From a virus (Duplodnaviria > Heunggongvirae > Uroviricota > Caudoviricetes), in the IMG/VR virus record IMGVR_UViG_3300037264_002389, positions 74,545 to 129,257 of that record: DNA of 54,713 bases. One strand, written 5' to 3'. A model generated the notes under the pieces. That model was given only the letters and a program-made list of their open reading frames with translations. It was not told the origin of the DNA and ran no database searches. The position numbers and the translations under genes were made by a program. Below, in pieces: positions 6,110-45,700 of the stretch; positions within the stretch are counted from its first letter, which is position 1, and each line of letters opens with the position of its first letter.

Positions 6110-6442
6110 TCATGCTTCAGTAATGCTAACCTTCAGAGAATTATCATGTTGGTGCATGATTTGCGCAATGTGTTCCGCTCGTTCATAATGGGTATTACGT
6201 ATGATGATGTTCTCGTGTTTAATTGCTTTAACAATTTTCATTGAGTGCTCGTAAGTGAATCCTGCTGTGATTAATGCTTCTAGCAGTTTTTTGCTGTCTG
6301 TTCTTCTTAGAATTATGTTATATAATTTAATTGGGCCGGTTTGTTTTGGATGTTTTGCGATATGATCTAATACTTCTGCTTGGGTTTTGAAGCAGCGCGG
6401 TCTGAGTGGCAGTATGCTTCTGATGAGGCTCATTATGCTCAT
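6110..6442 (-). CDS. Hypothetical protein, possible ClpS / L7-L12 CTD-like fold
   Basis: RBS AGGAG. The C-terminal YNIIL...LLEALI...ERAEHIAQIM...LKVSITEA pattern loosely resembles ClpS. Confidence 0.5.
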   Translation of the reverse strand: MSIMSLIRSILPLRPRCFKTQAEVLDHIAKHPKQTGPIKLYNIILRRTDSKKLLEALITAGFTYEHSMKIVKAIKHENIIIRNTHYERAEHIAQIMHQHDNSLKVSITEA

Positions 6443-6626
6443 GTTTATCTCCTATGCTATTGTATCTTTGTTAAGGATCTACTAAATCTCTATTTTGATC
6501 TTTCTAGTATAGTTTTAGGTGCTTTGCCCCATGGCGTAAGTGGTCTCTTTTTGTGGCGGCAAGAGCTGAGACTGAGCAAGCTCAATAGGACTACAATTAA
6601 GAGTTTATGCACATAAATATATTTGA

Positions 6627-6974
6627 TTATGTTTTTGTATCGTATACGCGATGAACTATTATCGCCCATCGCCTGTTGTATTGTTCTTTCACTGTATCGT
6701 AATGGTACATACCGAAGTGCCAATGTGTATCATCTTCTTCAGCGCTGACACAGCGCAATTCTCCTTGGACGATCATTGCTAATACCGTTTCTAGTGTGGC
6801 TTCTATTCCAGGACGCTTTCCGTCTTCACTCACCATTCTTTGATGTAAATCTTTACTAAATGCGAGCAGGACGTTACGTACGATATATCTTACACCGTCC
6901 GATAATTGATTGAGGTCTTTGGCCCATTGTCCTTGGTATTTGGGGCCTGCTAATGTCTTGGGTAGTTCGCGCAT
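6627..6974 (-). CDS. Hypothetical protein
   Basis: 115-aa ORF with GAGGA RBS. Confidence 0.75.
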   Translation of the reverse strand: MRELPKTLAGPKYQGQWAKDLNQLSDGVRYIVRNVLLAFSKDLHQRMVSEDGKRPGIEATLETVLAMIVQGELRCVSAEEDDTHWHFGMYHYDTVKEQYNRRWAIIVHRVYDTKT

Positions 6975-23762: not shown

Positions 23763-23839
23763 GCTCCGGTAGACCAATAGCAGGAGTCACCACGCTTAGA
23801 ACGTGGGCAGTGTGGGTGCAACTCCCACCCGGAGCACCA
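23763..23839 (+). tRNA. trnL: tRNA-Leu(UAG), short variable arm
   Basis: Loop CTTAGAA; T loop TGCAACT; CCA. Confidence 0.9.
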
Positions 23840-24529: not shown

Positions 24530-24563
24530 GCCCCTATAGTATAATGGTATTACTCCTACTGGT
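24530..24563 (+). pseudogene. 5' half of a split tRNA (probably Thr-GGU)
   Basis: GCCCCTA-TA-GTATAATGGTATTAC-T-CCTAC-T-GGT. The acceptor and anticodon strands pair with 25327-25363. Confidence 0.85.
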
Positions 24564-24570
24564 TTCAATC

Positions 24571-24641
24571 GCTAGTATAGTTCAATGGCAGAACACCGTT
24601 TTGGTAAAACGGAAATGCGAGTCCGATTCTCGCTACTAGCT
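24571..24641 (+). tRNA. trnT: tRNA-Thr(GGU), nested inside the split tRNA
   Basis: GCTAGTA/TACTAGC acceptor, loop TTGGTAA, no CCA. Confidence 0.92.
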
Positions 24642-24679
24642 CGTCATAGTCGAAAGTAAATATTAACAGAGGTTCGATT

Positions 24680-25306
24680 ATGCTTGGGTATAAAACATCT
24701 GTAGAAAGAATTGCTGACATTAAGAAGGCTCGGTTAAATGGTTATTCTTTGAAGCAGATTTGTAAAATGTTCAATATGAGTAAATCAACTGTTTCTGGTT
24801 ATATTCAAGGGCTACGGAAAAATAATCCAACATCCGGTAGCGGGCGTTATATGAAGGAGTTGTGGCAAAATAGGTATTCCAAAATAATGCAAGAAGCATT
24901 AATCGAATTTGAGAAGATTAGGATCGATCCAGAAATGTCTTTGTTTATTGGTTTATATTGGGGAGAAGGATCGAAAGCTAATAAACATATTGGGATAACA
25001 AACAATGATCCAAGCATCATTAGATTATGTTATAAGATATTTCGAAAATTCAGTCCACATAAAATGATTTCGATTACCATATTTTGTTATCCTGACCATA
25101 ATAAAGAGGATTGCGAGAGATTTTGGAAGGCGTTGTTGAATGTTGAGACAGTGTCTATTCGTGATGCTTTGGATCAGCGGTCTAAACCAGCTACAGCACG
25201 AGTACGAGCACGATGCCCATTCGGTAGATGTGAAATGCGTTACTGTCATTGCGAATTTTATTGGCGTCTAATGACATGGTTGAAGTGTTTTAAAGAGTTA
25301 GTCTAA
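24680..25306 (+). CDS. HTH plus LAGLIDADG-like putative homing endonuclease
   Basis: N-terminal HTH (SLKQICKMFNMSKSTVS); FIGLYWGEGSK...ITNNDPSII. Confidence 0.75.
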   Translation: MLGYKTSVERIADIKKARLNGYSLKQICKMFNMSKSTVSGYIQGLRKNNPTSGSGRYMKELWQNRYSKIMQEALIEFEKIRIDPEMSLFIGLYWGEGSKANKHIGITNNDPSIIRLCYKIFRKFSPHKMISITIFCYPDHNKEDCERFWKALLNVETVSIRDALDQRSKPATARVRARCPFGRCEMRYCHCEFYWRLMTWLKCFKELV

Positions 25307-25326
25307 TACAAGAAGATAGACAAGCA

Positions 25327-25363
25327 TAAGTAGGGAATACAGGTTCAATTCCTGTTAGGGGCT
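25327..25363 (+). pseudogene. 3' half of the split tRNA
   Basis: TAA-GTAGG-GAAT-ACAGG-TTCAATT-CCTGT-TAGGGGC-T, complementary to 24530-24559. Confidence 0.85.
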
Positions 25364-29362: not shown

Positions 29363-29440
29363 GCTCTCGAAGTCGAAGAAGCCGAGACGCCTCCCTGTCA
29401 CGGAGGAGATAAGCCGGTGCGAGTCCGGTCGAGAGCGCCA
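29363..29440 (+). tRNA. trnD: tRNA-Asp(GUC)
   Basis: Loop CTGTCAC, G73, T loop TGCGAGT, CCA. Confidence 0.9.
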
Positions 29441-31179: not shown

Positions 31180-31240
31180 GCTCACGAAGGCGAAGTAGTC
31201 GAGCCGTCACCCTGTCACGGTGAAGAAAGCCGGTGCAACT
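31180..31240 (+). pseudogene. Truncated tRNA-Asp(GUC), broken at the T loop
   Basis: GCTCACG...TCACC-CTGTCAC-GGTGA...GCCGG-TGCAACT; the 3' T-stem and acceptor strands are absent. Confidence 0.85.
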
Positions 31241-31383
31241 ATCGCAGAATTTGTAAAGACGCTGAAGCTAAATCAAAATATAATATTCTCTGCAAACCAT
31301 GTAATACTCTACATTATGTCCAACAAATTTTGAAAATTAGCGGTCATAAGATAACATGGACATTCGACGCCGGGGTCGTCTAA
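31240..31383 (+). pseudogene. C-terminal remnant of an HNH-type gene
   Basis: YRRICKDAEAKSKYNILCKPCNTLHYVQQILK...; no start codon. Confidence 0.55.
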
Positions 31384-31496: not shown

Positions 31497-32090
31497 ATGG
31501 TCCTGACAGCGCCAGTTCTCCAACTCAATAAGAACTGGGTCCCAATCGAAGTAATCACCGTAGCCCAGGCTATGGAGAAGATCTTTACTGGTCGAGCACG
31601 GGCCATTGAAGTTGATAACTTTAATCTCCATAACTTCGAGTCCTGGTCGCAGTTAGCTGCTCTGAAGAATCAGCCAGGGATTCGGACCGCTACTCTGTAT
31701 CTTAGGGTACCAGAGGTGGTTGTTCTGACTAATTACGGTGAAACGCCAGATAAGCATTTGGCGTTTTCTCGGTCTAACATCTACAAGAGGGATAGGAATA
31801 CCTGTCAATATTGTGGTGTGAGGCCAGGTACGAGTGAGTTGACGATTGACCATATCATTCCCCGCAGCAGGGGAGGCAAAAGCACATGGCTGAACTGCGT
31901 GCTTGCCTGTATTACTTGTAATAGAAAGAAGGCCGATAGGACGTTGGCTGAGTCTGGTTTAAGGTTGAGACACCAGCCAATTAAACCTGAGTGGAGTCCT
32001 AGGATTGTTCTTGCCAGGGTTAGGAATATTCCGGTTAGTTGGGAGAGATTTGTTTCGAATGCATACTGGGATCAGGAATTGAAAGAGTAG
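31497..32090 (+). CDS. HNH endonuclease (McrA-like)
   Basis: RDRNTCQYCG...TIDHIIPRSRGG...WLNCVLACITCNRKK; GGAGG RBS. Confidence 0.93.
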   Translation: MVLTAPVLQLNKNWVPIEVITVAQAMEKIFTGRARAIEVDNFNLHNFESWSQLAALKNQPGIRTATLYLRVPEVVVLTNYGETPDKHLAFSRSNIYKRDRNTCQYCGVRPGTSELTIDHIIPRSRGGKSTWLNCVLACITCNRKKADRTLAESGLRLRHQPIKPEWSPRIVLARVRNIPVSWERFVSNAYWDQELKE

Positions 32091-32395: not shown

Positions 32396-32402
32396 TCTTT
32401 GT

Positions 32403-32476
32403 GGCGCGGTAGCCCAATTAGCAGAGGCGCTAAGCTCAAACCTTAGATGTTGCGAGTGCAAGTCTCGCCCGCGCTA
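32403..32476 (+). tRNA. trnL: tRNA-Leu(CAA), short variable arm
   Basis: Loop CTCAAAC, T loop TGCAAGT. Confidence 0.88.
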
Positions 32477-32490
32477 TCACTTACGGATGT

Positions 32491-32567
32491 GGCGGGGTAG
32501 CCCAACTAGCAGTGGCACCTGATTTAAGATCAGGGAGTTGTGGGTGCAAATCCCACCCCCGCTACCA
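32491..32567 (+). tRNA. trnL: tRNA-Leu(UAA), short variable arm
   Basis: Loop TTTAAGA, T loop TGCAAAT, CCA. Confidence 0.9.
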
Positions 32568-35071: not shown

Positions 35072-35198
35072 CACGAGAGACGGCCCCGGCAACTATTTGG
35101 GGTGCTGACAGGCGCGGCAACATTGAATGGCATGGGTTCCAGAAACCCACAGGAGTACAGCTCCGACCGATCGTCACCAACGCGTGGTGAGTGCCGTG
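35072..35198 (+). ncRNA. Candidate multibranch structured RNA
   Basis: acggc/gccgt closing pair; hairpins gcccc/ggggt, tgggt/accca, ggag/ctcc, tcacca/tggtga. Confidence 0.35.
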
Positions 35199-35214
35199 AT
35201 GTTAGATGTTAGAC

Positions 35215-35291
35215 ACTCTCGTGGTGTAGTGGATTCTGCACGCGACTCTGCGGAAGTCGAGGTGAAGGTTCGATTCCTTCCGAGAGTGCCA
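35215..35291 (+). tRNA. trnR: tRNA-Arg(GCG)
   Basis: CGACT-CTGCGGA-AGTCG arm, perfect acceptor, CCA. Confidence 0.9.
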
Positions 35292-35299
35292 TTAATTCT

Positions 35300-35327
35300 G
35301 GATCGGTAGCCCAATTTGGCAGAGGCA
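35300..35327 (+). pseudogene. 5' part of a split short-arm tRNA-Leu
   Basis: GGATCGG-TA-GCCCAATTTGGCAGAGGC-A; D arm is near-identical to Leu(CAA) and Leu(UAA). Confidence 0.8.
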
Positions 35328-35340
35328 TATAGATTATCTT

Positions 35341-35422
35341 CGAGATGTGGCGAAATGGCAGACGCGACAGTTCGAGAGACTGTTGGGGTAATCCCATGAG
35401 AGTTCGAATCTCTCCATCTCGA
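35341..35422 (+). tRNA. trnL: tRNA-Leu(GAG), long variable arm, nested
   Basis: ACAGT-TCGAGAG-ACTGT arm, TGGG-GTAA-TCCCA variable arm, no CCA. Confidence 0.88.
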
Positions 35423-35478
35423 TTTTCAAGAACCACTCCTGCCAATGCGAATGTAAATAAATTGGCGGAGGTGACAAT

Positions 35479-35597
35479 GTGTCAAAATATAGTAAACAGC
35501 AACTAGAATTACTTGTGCGAGACAGCAGATCAGTAGCTGATGTTATTGTGCTACAGCAAGAAAATATGGCGTGACTGATAATACAATTAGAAAATGG
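35479..35597 (+). pseudogene. Internally deleted HNH-endonuclease-type gene
   Basis: GGAGG plus GTG gives MSKYSKQQLELLVRDSRSVADVI, joined out of frame to ATARKYGVTDNTIRKW (HTH-like). Confidence 0.6.
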
Positions 35598-35629
35598 TTG
35601 TGTGGGTTCAACTCCCACCCGGTCCACCA
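35597..35629 (+). pseudogene. 3' part of the split short-arm tRNA-Leu
   Basis: GTTGT-GTGGG-TTCAACT-CCCAC-CCGGTCC-ACCA; the acceptor strand pairs with GGATCGG at 35300. Confidence 0.82.
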
Positions 35630-35632
35630 AAT

Positions 35633-35709
35633 GCACCGGTAGACCAATAGCAGGAGTCGCCAAGCTCAGAACTTGGACAGTGTGGGTGCAACTCCCACCC
35701 GGTGTACCA
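35633..35709 (+). tRNA. trnL: tRNA-Leu(CAG), short variable arm
   Basis: Loop CTCAGAA; body nearly identical to Leu(UAG); CCA. Confidence 0.9.
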
Positions 35710-35717
35710 TCTTGTGC

Positions 35718-35789
35718 GGCCCTGTCTTCTAATGGTAAGGATCTTGCTCTTTCACAGCAAAGATGCCGGTTCGAATCCGGTCAGGGCTA
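35718..35789 (+). tRNA. trnE: tRNA-Glu(UUC)
   Basis: TTGCT-CTTTCAC-AGCAA arm; no CCA. Confidence 0.85.
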
Positions 35790-35911
35790 TTATTTTAATG
35801 TGAGATCAGGCTGGCATCAGTCCACAACCATATCGGATCATTGAGTTTCATATAATATAGTATCGTGTCTTTGTCTAATTGGCTAGGATCTTTCGATTTG
35901 TCGATACGATT

Positions 35912-45410: not shown

Positions 45411-45530
45411 AGAACCACCCGAAGCCCCGAAGCGGGTCTAGGGAGGATGGTCCTCCCCAGTGATCTGGGTAGAGGATCTGATATTTAGAACCACCCGAAA
45501 GCGCCGATTGGGGCTTAGGGAGGATGGCCC
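45411..45530 (+). repeat. Imperfect direct repeat of a ~43-nt stem-loop motif
   Basis: agaaccacccgaa...tagggaggatgg at 45411-45452 and 45487-45530. Confidence 0.8.
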
Positions 45531-45595
45531 ATCGTCTAATGGCAGGACACCAGCCTTCTAAGCTGGAAATGCGGGTTCGATTCCCGCTGGACGCC
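45525..45595 (+). pseudogene. tRNA-Arg(UCU) with a mismatched acceptor stem
   Basis: D, anticodon (CTTCTAA) and T arms are intact. The 5' strand TGGCCCA has 3 mismatches to TGGACGC. Confidence 0.7.
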
Positions 45596-45610
45596 TGATA
45601 CATATCTTAT

Positions 45611-45700
45611 GGAGAGTGAACCGGATAGGCATGCCGGAACTGTTTTGAAAGCAGATTGCACCCGAAAGGGTGTGGGGATCATGTCCTCCGCTCTCCGCCA
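45611..45700 (+). tRNA. trnS: tRNA-Ser(UGA)
   Basis: Loop TTTGAAA, long arm, T loop ATCATGT, GCCA end. Confidence 0.88.

Follow-up and report, generated by a model that had tools for sequence, protein, structure and literature searches.

A split short-arm leucine tRNA gene around a complete tRNA-Leu(GAG) and a broken reading frame in a sediment phage: probable scar of a homing-endonuclease cassette

The tRNA array of a giant tailed phage (Caudoviricetes) from a sediment metagenome contains a locus at which two pieces of one tRNA gene are separated by a second, complete tRNA gene and a short, broken open reading frame (ORF). The DNA analyzed, hereafter the window, is a stretch of 54,713 nucleotides (nt; positions 74,545 to 129,257 of IMG/VR virus record IMGVR_UViG_3300037264_002389), which forms the final 54.7 kb of this 129-kb record (completeness estimate ~35%) and in which ARAGORN reports at least 36 tRNA genes. 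The locus occupies positions 35300–35629 of the window and, together with its neighbouring tRNA genes, has the following features.

35215–35291, plus strand: intact tRNA-Arg(GCG), the upstream neighbour, 8 nt before the split gene (ARAGORN; Rfam, 57.6 bits)
35300–35327, plus strand: 5′ fragment of a short-arm (class I-like) Leu-type tRNA, with the acceptor strand GGATCGG, TA at positions 8–9, the D arm and A26
35328–35340, plus strand: AT-rich left junction or spacer, not an anticodon stem (no pairing partner found in the sequence)
35341–35422, plus strand: complete bacterial-type class II tRNA-Leu(GAG), with a long variable arm and A73, no CCA (Rfam, ARAGORN)
35434–35473, plus strand: imperfect 13-bp hairpin whose 3′ arm holds the ribosome-binding site (GGAGGTG, 35467–35473) of the remnant ORF (repeat search)
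35479–35597, plus strand: remnant ORF with a single helix-turn-helix (HTH) module and a frameshift near 35545–35550 (reading frames, Pfam, alignments)
35597–35629, plus strand: 3′ fragment of the same short-arm Leu-type tRNA, with variable loop, T arm, acceptor strand, A73 and CCA
35633–35709, plus strand: tRNA-Leu(CAG), an intact short-arm paralogue of the broken gene, 3 nt downstream (ARAGORN; Rfam, 47.7 bits)

The two outer fragments, which we refer to as the shell, fit each other as parts of a single tRNA. Their acceptor strands form seven of seven possible pairs, one of them G-U, and the 3′ strands of the four intact short-arm Leu paralogues, which have four different acceptor stems, would each pair less well with the 5′ strand of the shell. 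The 3′ fragment is composed of the variable loop GTTGT, the T arm GTGGG/TTCAACT/CCCAC, the acceptor strand CCGGTCC and the end ACCA, and is 90–91% identical to the 3′ ends of Leu(TAG) and Leu(CAG). Moreover, the shell combines a D-loop GG with a T-loop TTC, whereas the four intact short-arm Leu tRNAs are without that GG and have the T loop TGC, indicating that both pieces come from one, more canonical family member. As the upstream tRNA-Arg(GCG) is intact, the shell is not itself nested inside another tRNA. The 5′ fragment stops exactly where the anticodon stem would start; position 27 is always C in the family, which the spacer at 35328–35340 does not fit. The split is not a simple point insertion, since the entire anticodon arm (positions 27–43) is gone and 269 nt stand in its place. 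At the junctions, no repeats or palindromes were found above 6-bp chance matches.

The exact 22-nt D arm of the shell (GGTAGCCCAATTTGGCAGAGGC) was found at 27 loci in a scan of JGI metagenome contigs. All 23 intact tRNAs carrying it (75–78 nt) have Leu anticodons (GAG in 8, CAA in 7, CAG in 5 and TAG in 3) as well as A73, and all lie in tRNA arrays, so that short-arm Leu(GAG) genes with the D arm of the shell do exist in metagenomes. The shell has the D arm of this family, its 5-nt variable loop, T arm, A73 and CCA. Because the anticodon arm is absent, the isotype of the shell is taken from the family (23 of 23 Leu), and judged by its sequence the shell is a Leu-type tRNA, the lost anticodon of which was most likely GAG.

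Five further sequences from the metagenomes (L013, L015 and L018, and also L028 and L030) are anticodon-less Leu-shaped shells with the exact D arm, and a second tRNA-like element follows these shells. In three of the loci, a DUF7873 (PF25283) gene immediately precedes the shell (E values of 1e-87 to 1e-98), which makes for a conserved RNA–protein neighbourhood.

The nested gene scores 49.2 bits against the Rfam tRNA model (gathering score 29) and folds into a cloverleaf with a paired 7-bp acceptor stem; its limits are those given by Rfam, the ARAGORN call being displaced by one base. Its variable region forms a 14-nt hairpin arm, and position 35422 holds the discriminator A. Class II tRNA-Leu genes of more than 120 bacterial genomes from many phyla have exactly the D arm of the nested gene, and the bacterial tRNAs with this D arm had a Leu anticodon in 80 of 80 cases examined; the best overall identity is 82%, so that no donor can be named. 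The nested gene does not encode CCA, and most resident tRNAs do. A 10-nt near-repeat (TGGCAGAGGC / TGGCAGACGC) is shared by the D arms of the shell and of the nested tRNA. The intact short-arm Leu genes of the array comprise TAG, CAA, TAA and CAG, each 77 nt long with a variable loop of 5 nt and not a long arm, and the only Leu(GAG) that ARAGORN reports in the window is the long-arm copy. CTT and CTC together make up 26% of the Leu codons in the long ORFs of the phage. An earlier note on this DNA, written from the sequence alone, had proposed that the fragments at 35300–35327 and 35597–35629 belong to one short-arm Leu-type tRNA, that they enclose a complete long-arm Leu(GAG), and that GAG is the sole Leu anticodon missing from the short-arm set; the acceptor pairing and matching loops, the Rfam match and the anticodons of the array bear out all three.

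Downstream of the nested tRNA, the 13-bp hairpin, which is also present in the minimum free energy fold of the whole unit, leads into an ORF that is broken into two frames. Frame A (35479–35574) has a GTG start and 31 codons and begins MSKYSKQQLELLVRDSRSVADVI, and frame B (35550–35597) encodes ATARKYGVTDNTIRKW and extends into the 3′ fragment of the tRNA. When joined via one frameshift, the product matches several Pfam HTH families below threshold, with HTH_Tnp_1 covering residues 2–40 at an E value of 0.002. A tblastn search of the remnant against 50,697 phage records gave weak matches (E values of 1–8), mostly to genes annotated as, or found to be, HNH endonucleases. The frame B peptide corresponds to the recognition helix of the C-terminal HTH in the HNH proteins of phiHQ, Thrax1, McCartney and LR756504 (z scores of 11–15 against shuffles), and the frame A peptide matches the same C-terminal module about 18 residues upstream of it in three of the four. 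By these alignments, the remnant corresponds to the C-terminal HTH module of the tRNA-array HNH subgroup (SKxxL ... YGVSDNxIRKW). All four comparator genes lie within tRNA arrays, and in Pfam the phiHQ, Thrax1 and McCartney proteins match HNH or HNH_3.

Across 35424–35640, no HNH, GIY-YIG, LAGLIDADG or PD-(D/E)XK motif was found in any frame. With no HNH catalytic motif left, the label 'HNH' derives solely from the likeness of the DNA-binding module. Given the recognition-helix match, the collinear first piece and the occurrence of the comparators in tRNA arrays, the stub is best read as the DNA-binding module of a tRNA-array HNH homing endonuclease that would have lost, by deletion, its catalytic domain (some 125 codons long in the comparators) and a short C-terminal tail. 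The earlier note had described the ORF as a decayed HNH gene in which both termini survive an internal deletion. The broken ORF and its likeness to an HNH module stand, and a single HTH with a frameshift takes the place of the two termini: the reading as joined N and C termini fits the spacing and the domain match more poorly and is probably wrong, although the N terminus of Thrax1 is vaguely similar to the remnant and leaves it some room. The array also contains an intact 197-amino-acid HNH endonuclease gene (31497–32090; PF01844, E value 1.8e-15) directly after tRNA-Thr(TGT). It was considered as a parent of the remnant and set aside, being of another HNH type and having no C-terminal HTH.

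A second locus of the window shows the same layout.

24530–25363, plus strand: Thr cassette, in which tRNA-Thr halves (24530–24563 and 25327–25363) surround a tRNA-Thr(GGT) and an ORF

Here, the two halves pair over seven of seven acceptor positions and over five of five Watson-Crick pairs of the anticodon stem. The insert consists of tRNA-Thr(GGT) at 24571–24642, followed by an intact 208-amino-acid ORF (24680–25306). This ORF has an HTH at its N terminus as well as a LAGLIDADG-like motif, and a two-sequence profile of it gave a weak match to I-DmoI (E value 0.05); a structure model from the single sequence was too poor to use, with a predicted local distance difference test score of 44. The Thr-cassette ORF and the Leu remnant gave no alignment, and the idea that they are paralogues was dropped. 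The sole detectable homologue of the Thr-cassette ORF, P0122 (36% identity), lies between tRNA halves on a 1.9-kb contig (L037), beside a nested Gly(GCC)-like tRNA body; by sequence, its outer halves look glycine-like, with U73.

A further case is found in a cultured phage. In Pseudomonas phage phiHQ, a tRNA-Asn 5′ half is followed by an 87-nt tRNA-Asn(GTT), a 185-amino-acid gene of the HNH_3 family and the 3′ half with CCA. The HNH gene is intact (Pfam HNH_3, E value 1.3e-10). In the related phage PA_ZH1, the tRNA-Asn gene (73 nt) is uninterrupted and is immediately preceded by the same 7 bases; a compensatory difference, C5-G68 versus T5-A68, indicates that the two phiHQ halves belong together. 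Since the downstream context differs between phiHQ and PA_ZH1, the assignment to the same locus is based on the upstream side alone. Further phiKZ-like phages show the same kind of difference at the tRNA-Asn locus.

A half-pair detector applied to 1.09 Mb of DNA returned 13 candidate pairs, three of which (Thr, Leu and Asn) are convincing; these were the only ones enclosing exactly one complete tRNA, and in each of them this tRNA matched the isotype of the shell. By array composition, a chance isotype match in the two window cases has a probability of 5/36 × 4/36, or about 0.015. The earlier note had held that the layout occurs twice in the window with different nuclease families, and had proposed isotype matching as a check. 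The double occurrence is real and the isotypes agree in three of three convincing pairs within the 1.09 Mb, whereas the difference in families is no more than a possibility, the Thr ORF having the weak I-DmoI match and the Leu remnant an HTH alone.

Two further loci show related irregularities. In L039 (LR756504.1, from an uncultured phage of 636 kb), the gene between tRNA-Gln and three tRNA-Lys genes encodes an HNH protein that has the same C-terminal HTH, and the array holds same-anticodon pairs of unequal length (Tyr, 86 and 90 nt; Lys(TTT), 89 and 73 nt), which could be further replacement events. In L012, on the reverse strand (6441–6708) and after a short-arm Leu(TAG), the anticodon loop of a tRNA holds about 190 nt resembling a group I intron.

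The split arrangement itself is not an artefact of assembly. A Logan contig from an independent assembly of the same run covers 35095–35677 with zero differences, which shows that the locus is no misjoin, and misassembly was rejected on this ground. The contigs of the source run support the join, rare alleles being beyond what they can resolve. Among public runs, the stretch was found in the source sediment metagenome only. The AAA ATPase gene neighbouring the locus has its closest homologue, P0002, at 85% identity; homologues at 50–58% identity are not syntenic and are without a tRNA array. Gp23 T4-type capsid genes adjoin distant homologues of a gene neighbouring the locus. A blastn search of the locus against a phage database gave matches limited to the short-arm Leu(CAG) and a tRNA-Glu. 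A 394-nt contig from the same sediment run, representing an approximately 85%-related phage, departs after 35198 toward a different tRNA and is therefore uninformative on the Leu site.

Taken together, these results suggest, with a probability that we put at roughly 0.62, that a free-standing homing-endonuclease cassette entered a tRNA gene resident in the phage, became fixed and is now decaying, the locus being its scar. The best reading of this cassette is a nested variant of the homing in tRNA clusters known from the T4 endonuclease SegB. The ancestral site would have been a 77-nt short-arm Leu tRNA, most likely GAG, between tRNA-Arg(GCG) and tRNA-Leu(CAG). A cassette composed of a foreign bacterial-type class II tRNA-Leu(GAG) and then an HNH-type endonuclease gene may have been copied into this gene by double-strand-break repair once the endonuclease had cut the uninterrupted allele. 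The insertion would destroy the target and thereby render the carrier genome immune to further cutting, and the cargo tRNA, presumably too unlike the target to be cut, would restore CUU/CUC decoding, so that the insertion is tolerated. Decay after fixation is the usual fate of homing endonucleases. Once empty sites were exhausted, the endonuclease gene would have decayed by deletion of its catalytic domain and C-terminal tail and by a frameshift in its DNA-binding module; the same deletions may also have removed both strands of the old anticodon stem, and the cargo tRNA would have been retained as what is now the only GAG Leu tRNA. Cutting and homing at the Leu locus, and the order of the deletions, are what we infer. 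In the carrier, the presumed target is destroyed, with matching tRNA fragments flanking the insert. The locus encodes no endonuclease and is at most a relic of a SegB-type cassette; an empty-site allele is seen in the analogous phiHQ/PA_ZH1 pair.

Several observations weigh against this explanation. The anticodon loop of the nested tRNA reads U-C-GAG-A-G, with C33 and A37 in place of the canonical U33 and the G37 usual for CUN readers, which is unusual for a working tRNA-Leu; bacterial GAG tRNAs among the closest matches have the loop UUGAGGG, and one metagenomic short-arm Leu(GAG) (L035) has the same UCGAGAG loop. The HTH likeness of the remnant is, at E values of 1–8, not significant database-wide, and the HNH comparators were chosen from the same tblastn search; the remnant itself has no Pfam HNH match at E values up to 10 and no catalytic motif. 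No relative was found among viral contigs with exact patterns for either shell piece, the nested tRNA, the D arm of the family, Leu(CAG) or Arg(GCG), nor in protein scans of viral and metagenome contigs anchored on the AAA ATPase. Likewise, the viral- and metagenome-contig scans yielded no empty-site allele of the sediment phage, which is why the lost GAG is an inferred identity; the relatives that the earlier note had proposed to look for did not turn up in these scans. Finally, the edges of the missing anticodon arm are suspiciously exact (26/27 and ~43/44). A simple insertion of the Thr or Asn type would not give such edges, and the loss of the arm needs extra deletions or points to a design at the RNA level. 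Five of 28 metagenomic sequences with the D arm of the shell are anticodon-less shells, which means that exact replacement of the arm occurs in nature.

Recombination without homing is an unlikely account of the same features. The cargo would once have lain between two short-arm Leu genes, each of which was later trimmed by deletion or unequal crossover, or the segment would have been captured when similar tRNA genes, numerous in the array, underwent illegitimate recombination. Other tRNA debris is present in the array (an Asp-like copy at 31181–31245 and an Arg(TCT)-like body at 45529–45590), the near-repeat links the D arms of shell and cargo, and the ORF has clearly undergone deletions. However, the two shell pieces fit each other specifically, by seven of seven acceptor pairs and by the D/T-loop covariation, so that two parental genes would have to have been nearly identical, and the same ordered layout recurs at independent loci with intact endonucleases.

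An RNA-level account, which the exact edges of the missing arm bring to mind, appears rather improbable. Here, the outer pieces would form a working anticodon-less, tRNA-shaped RNA in which a variable insert replaces the anticodon arm; excision of the nested tRNA by RNase P and RNase Z would leave two ends able to remain paired in a 'top half' with CCA. The segment replaced is exactly the anticodon arm, and the fold of the 330-nt unit preserves the outer acceptor, D and T arms (z score −2.6). Five metagenomic sequences with the identical D arm carry an insert of about 100 nt right after position 26, and the same phage has another anticodon-less tRNA-shaped RNA at 12207–12283. The insert at the Leu locus, however, is a gene cassette (complete tRNA, ribosome-binding site and broken protein ORF) rather than a conserved RNA domain and has no motif in common with the five metagenomic shells. 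None of these shells is in a tRNA array, and three immediately follow a DUF7873 gene, whereas the phage fragment is without DUF7873; at the locus itself, the Rfam match to YrlA reached only 13.9 bits (E value 8). Moreover, an anticodon-less RNA leaves unexplained both the matching isotype of the nested gene and the resemblance between the ORF and tRNA-array endonucleases.

That the insert is an intron of a functional tRNA, of group I or a processed tRNA-shaped type removed at the RNA level, has next to no likelihood: group I introns with endonuclease ORFs are known from bacterial and phage tRNA anticodon loops, and one metagenomic tRNA beside a short-arm Leu gene has a group I-like insert (L012), but the spliced pieces would have no anticodon arm and hence no decoding capacity, 35200–35800 has no Rfam intron or ribozyme match at E values up to 10, the insert amounts to just 269 nt, mainly a tRNA and an ORF stub, and the unit is not nested in another tRNA.

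Beyond the single locus, we tentatively propose, at somewhat less than even odds, that cassettes of an endonuclease and a replacement tRNA form a general, undescribed class of selfish elements, whose cargo is deliberately unlike the target and which are a main driver of tRNA turnover in the arrays of large phages. Homing endonucleases are normally tolerated through their location in introns, in inteins or between genes. Breaking an essential-type gene while bringing along a substitute that cannot be cleaved would constitute a third route to tolerance, and a single cargo gene would at once protect against the cassette's own nuclease and make up for the broken gene. Cargo and target differ in architecture in the cases at hand, namely a bacterial class II Leu versus a phage short-arm Leu at the present locus and an 87-nt versus a 73-nt Asn in phiHQ. 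If true, such cassettes would account for the mixed tRNA architectures, duplicate isoacceptors and stray fragments in giant-phage arrays. More boldly, the leftover halves could pair, after excision of the nested tRNA, into a chargeable anticodon-less decoy top half. To this picture the Leu locus would add a late stage of the life cycle, with the enzyme dead and the cargo kept, the replacement of a phage short-arm tRNA by a bacterial class II tRNA, and a sequence link from a metagenomic relic to a live cassette in cultured phages. The link to cultured phiKZ-like Pseudomonas phages, some of which have the cassette while the gene is uninterrupted in at least one related phage, makes the proposal testable at the bench. 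There is also a warning for annotation, as the halves escape tRNA finders and the nested gene seems ordinary.

The array contains further irregular elements. An odd but apparently intact tRNA-Asp(GTC) at 29363–29438, missed by ARAGORN and by Rfam at its gathering score, has the paired acceptor strands GCTCTCG/CGAGAGC, an unusual D arm, the T loop TGCGAGT and an encoded GCCA. The truncated Asp(GTC)-like copy at 31181–31245 shares the style of this D arm, has the anticodon loop CTGTCAC and ends within its T arm, about 120 nt upstream of tRNA-Thr(TGT) and the intact HNH gene. At 45529–45590, the Arg(TCT)-like body matches the Rfam tRNA model over positions 5–66 only, its acceptor strands being unpaired, and it is directly followed by a Ser(TGA)-like class II tRNA (45610–45700), which has an odd T loop and is reported by neither tRNA tool. 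The segment 34440–35210, immediately before tRNA-Arg(GCG), has a GC content of 50–59% against about 35–40% around it and holds one doubtful 103-amino-acid ORF; it folds far beyond shuffles (z score −5.8), has no Rfam match and may be a structured RNA.

Among known systems, the species 1 and 2 RNAs of T4 (rnaC/rnaD) and bacterial YrlA are tRNA-shaped RNAs without an anticodon, as are the DUF7873-linked Leu-shaped shells. Similar to the Leu shell, RNAs of this kind keep the acceptor, D and T arms and CCA and have the anticodon arm replaced; they differ in that their inserts are structured RNAs of about 100 nt and in lying outside arrays, whereas the Leu locus holds a tRNA gene and a protein-gene stub. 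Group I introns with homing-endonuclease ORFs are present in tRNA anticodon loops, as in cyanobacterial tRNA-fMet with I-Ssp6803I and in tRNA-Leu(UAA). Like the Leu cassette as proposed here, they are mobile, endonuclease-bearing inserts near the anticodon that are harmless to the carrier. Introns, however, restore function by splicing, whereas the Leu locus has no ribozyme and a second gene within the insert would take over this role.

In the tRNA cluster of T4, the homing endonuclease SegB cuts tRNA genes and drives the preferred inheritance of the T4 tRNA region (PMC2330249). SegB is a free-standing enzyme of the GIY-YIG family, whose preferred site is in tRNA-Asn of T2L and whose recognition site includes a T-arm motif (PMC2330249, Brok-Volchanskaya et al. 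2008). Like the Leu cassette as read here, segB is a selfish endonuclease gene among phage tRNA genes with tRNA targets. In contrast to the Leu cassette, which lies inside a broken gene, segB sits between intact genes with no target halves around it and has no same-isotype replacement for the destroyed gene; the nuclease family is another one, and the enzyme of the Leu locus, moreover, is dead. As a separate observation, the surviving short-arm Leu genes (23763–23839, 32402–32567 and 35633–35709) have G55 in the T loop (TGCAA) and depart from the SegB motif GGTTCRANTCC; speculatively, they could be endonuclease-resistant variants.

HNH genes are described as the most widespread protein-coding genes in the tRNA arrays of mycobacteriophages and Mycobacterium and are implicated in the diversity of the tRNA repertoire (PMC5966550, PMC6409571). 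What these papers describe is adjacency, with no nesting in a broken isoacceptor together with a replacement tRNA (PMC5966550, PMC6409571). Our literature search found no description of the nested form, that is, of a cassette in a broken gene with a same-isotype substitute of different architecture, and no paper on the tRNA-Asn plus HNH cassette of the phiHQ type, which is annotated merely as tRNA-Asn and a hypothetical protein.

This cassette of the phiKZ-like phages phiHQ, phiLBG22 and BRkr (PV029745.1 and relatives) has the same order and orientation as the Leu locus, and its 3′ half ends in CCA. The C-terminal HTH of the phiHQ enzyme (KYGVSDNAIRKW) is among the closest matches to the Leu remnant, and the phiHQ 3′ piece begins in the last bases of the anticodon stem, near the point at which the Leu 3′ piece starts. 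The phiHQ cassette differs from the Leu locus in its Asn isotype, in an intact HNH gene, in a 5′ half that keeps its anticodon-stem strand, in the loss of only about 6 nt of the target, and in having, in PA_ZH1, a related phage with the uninterrupted gene.

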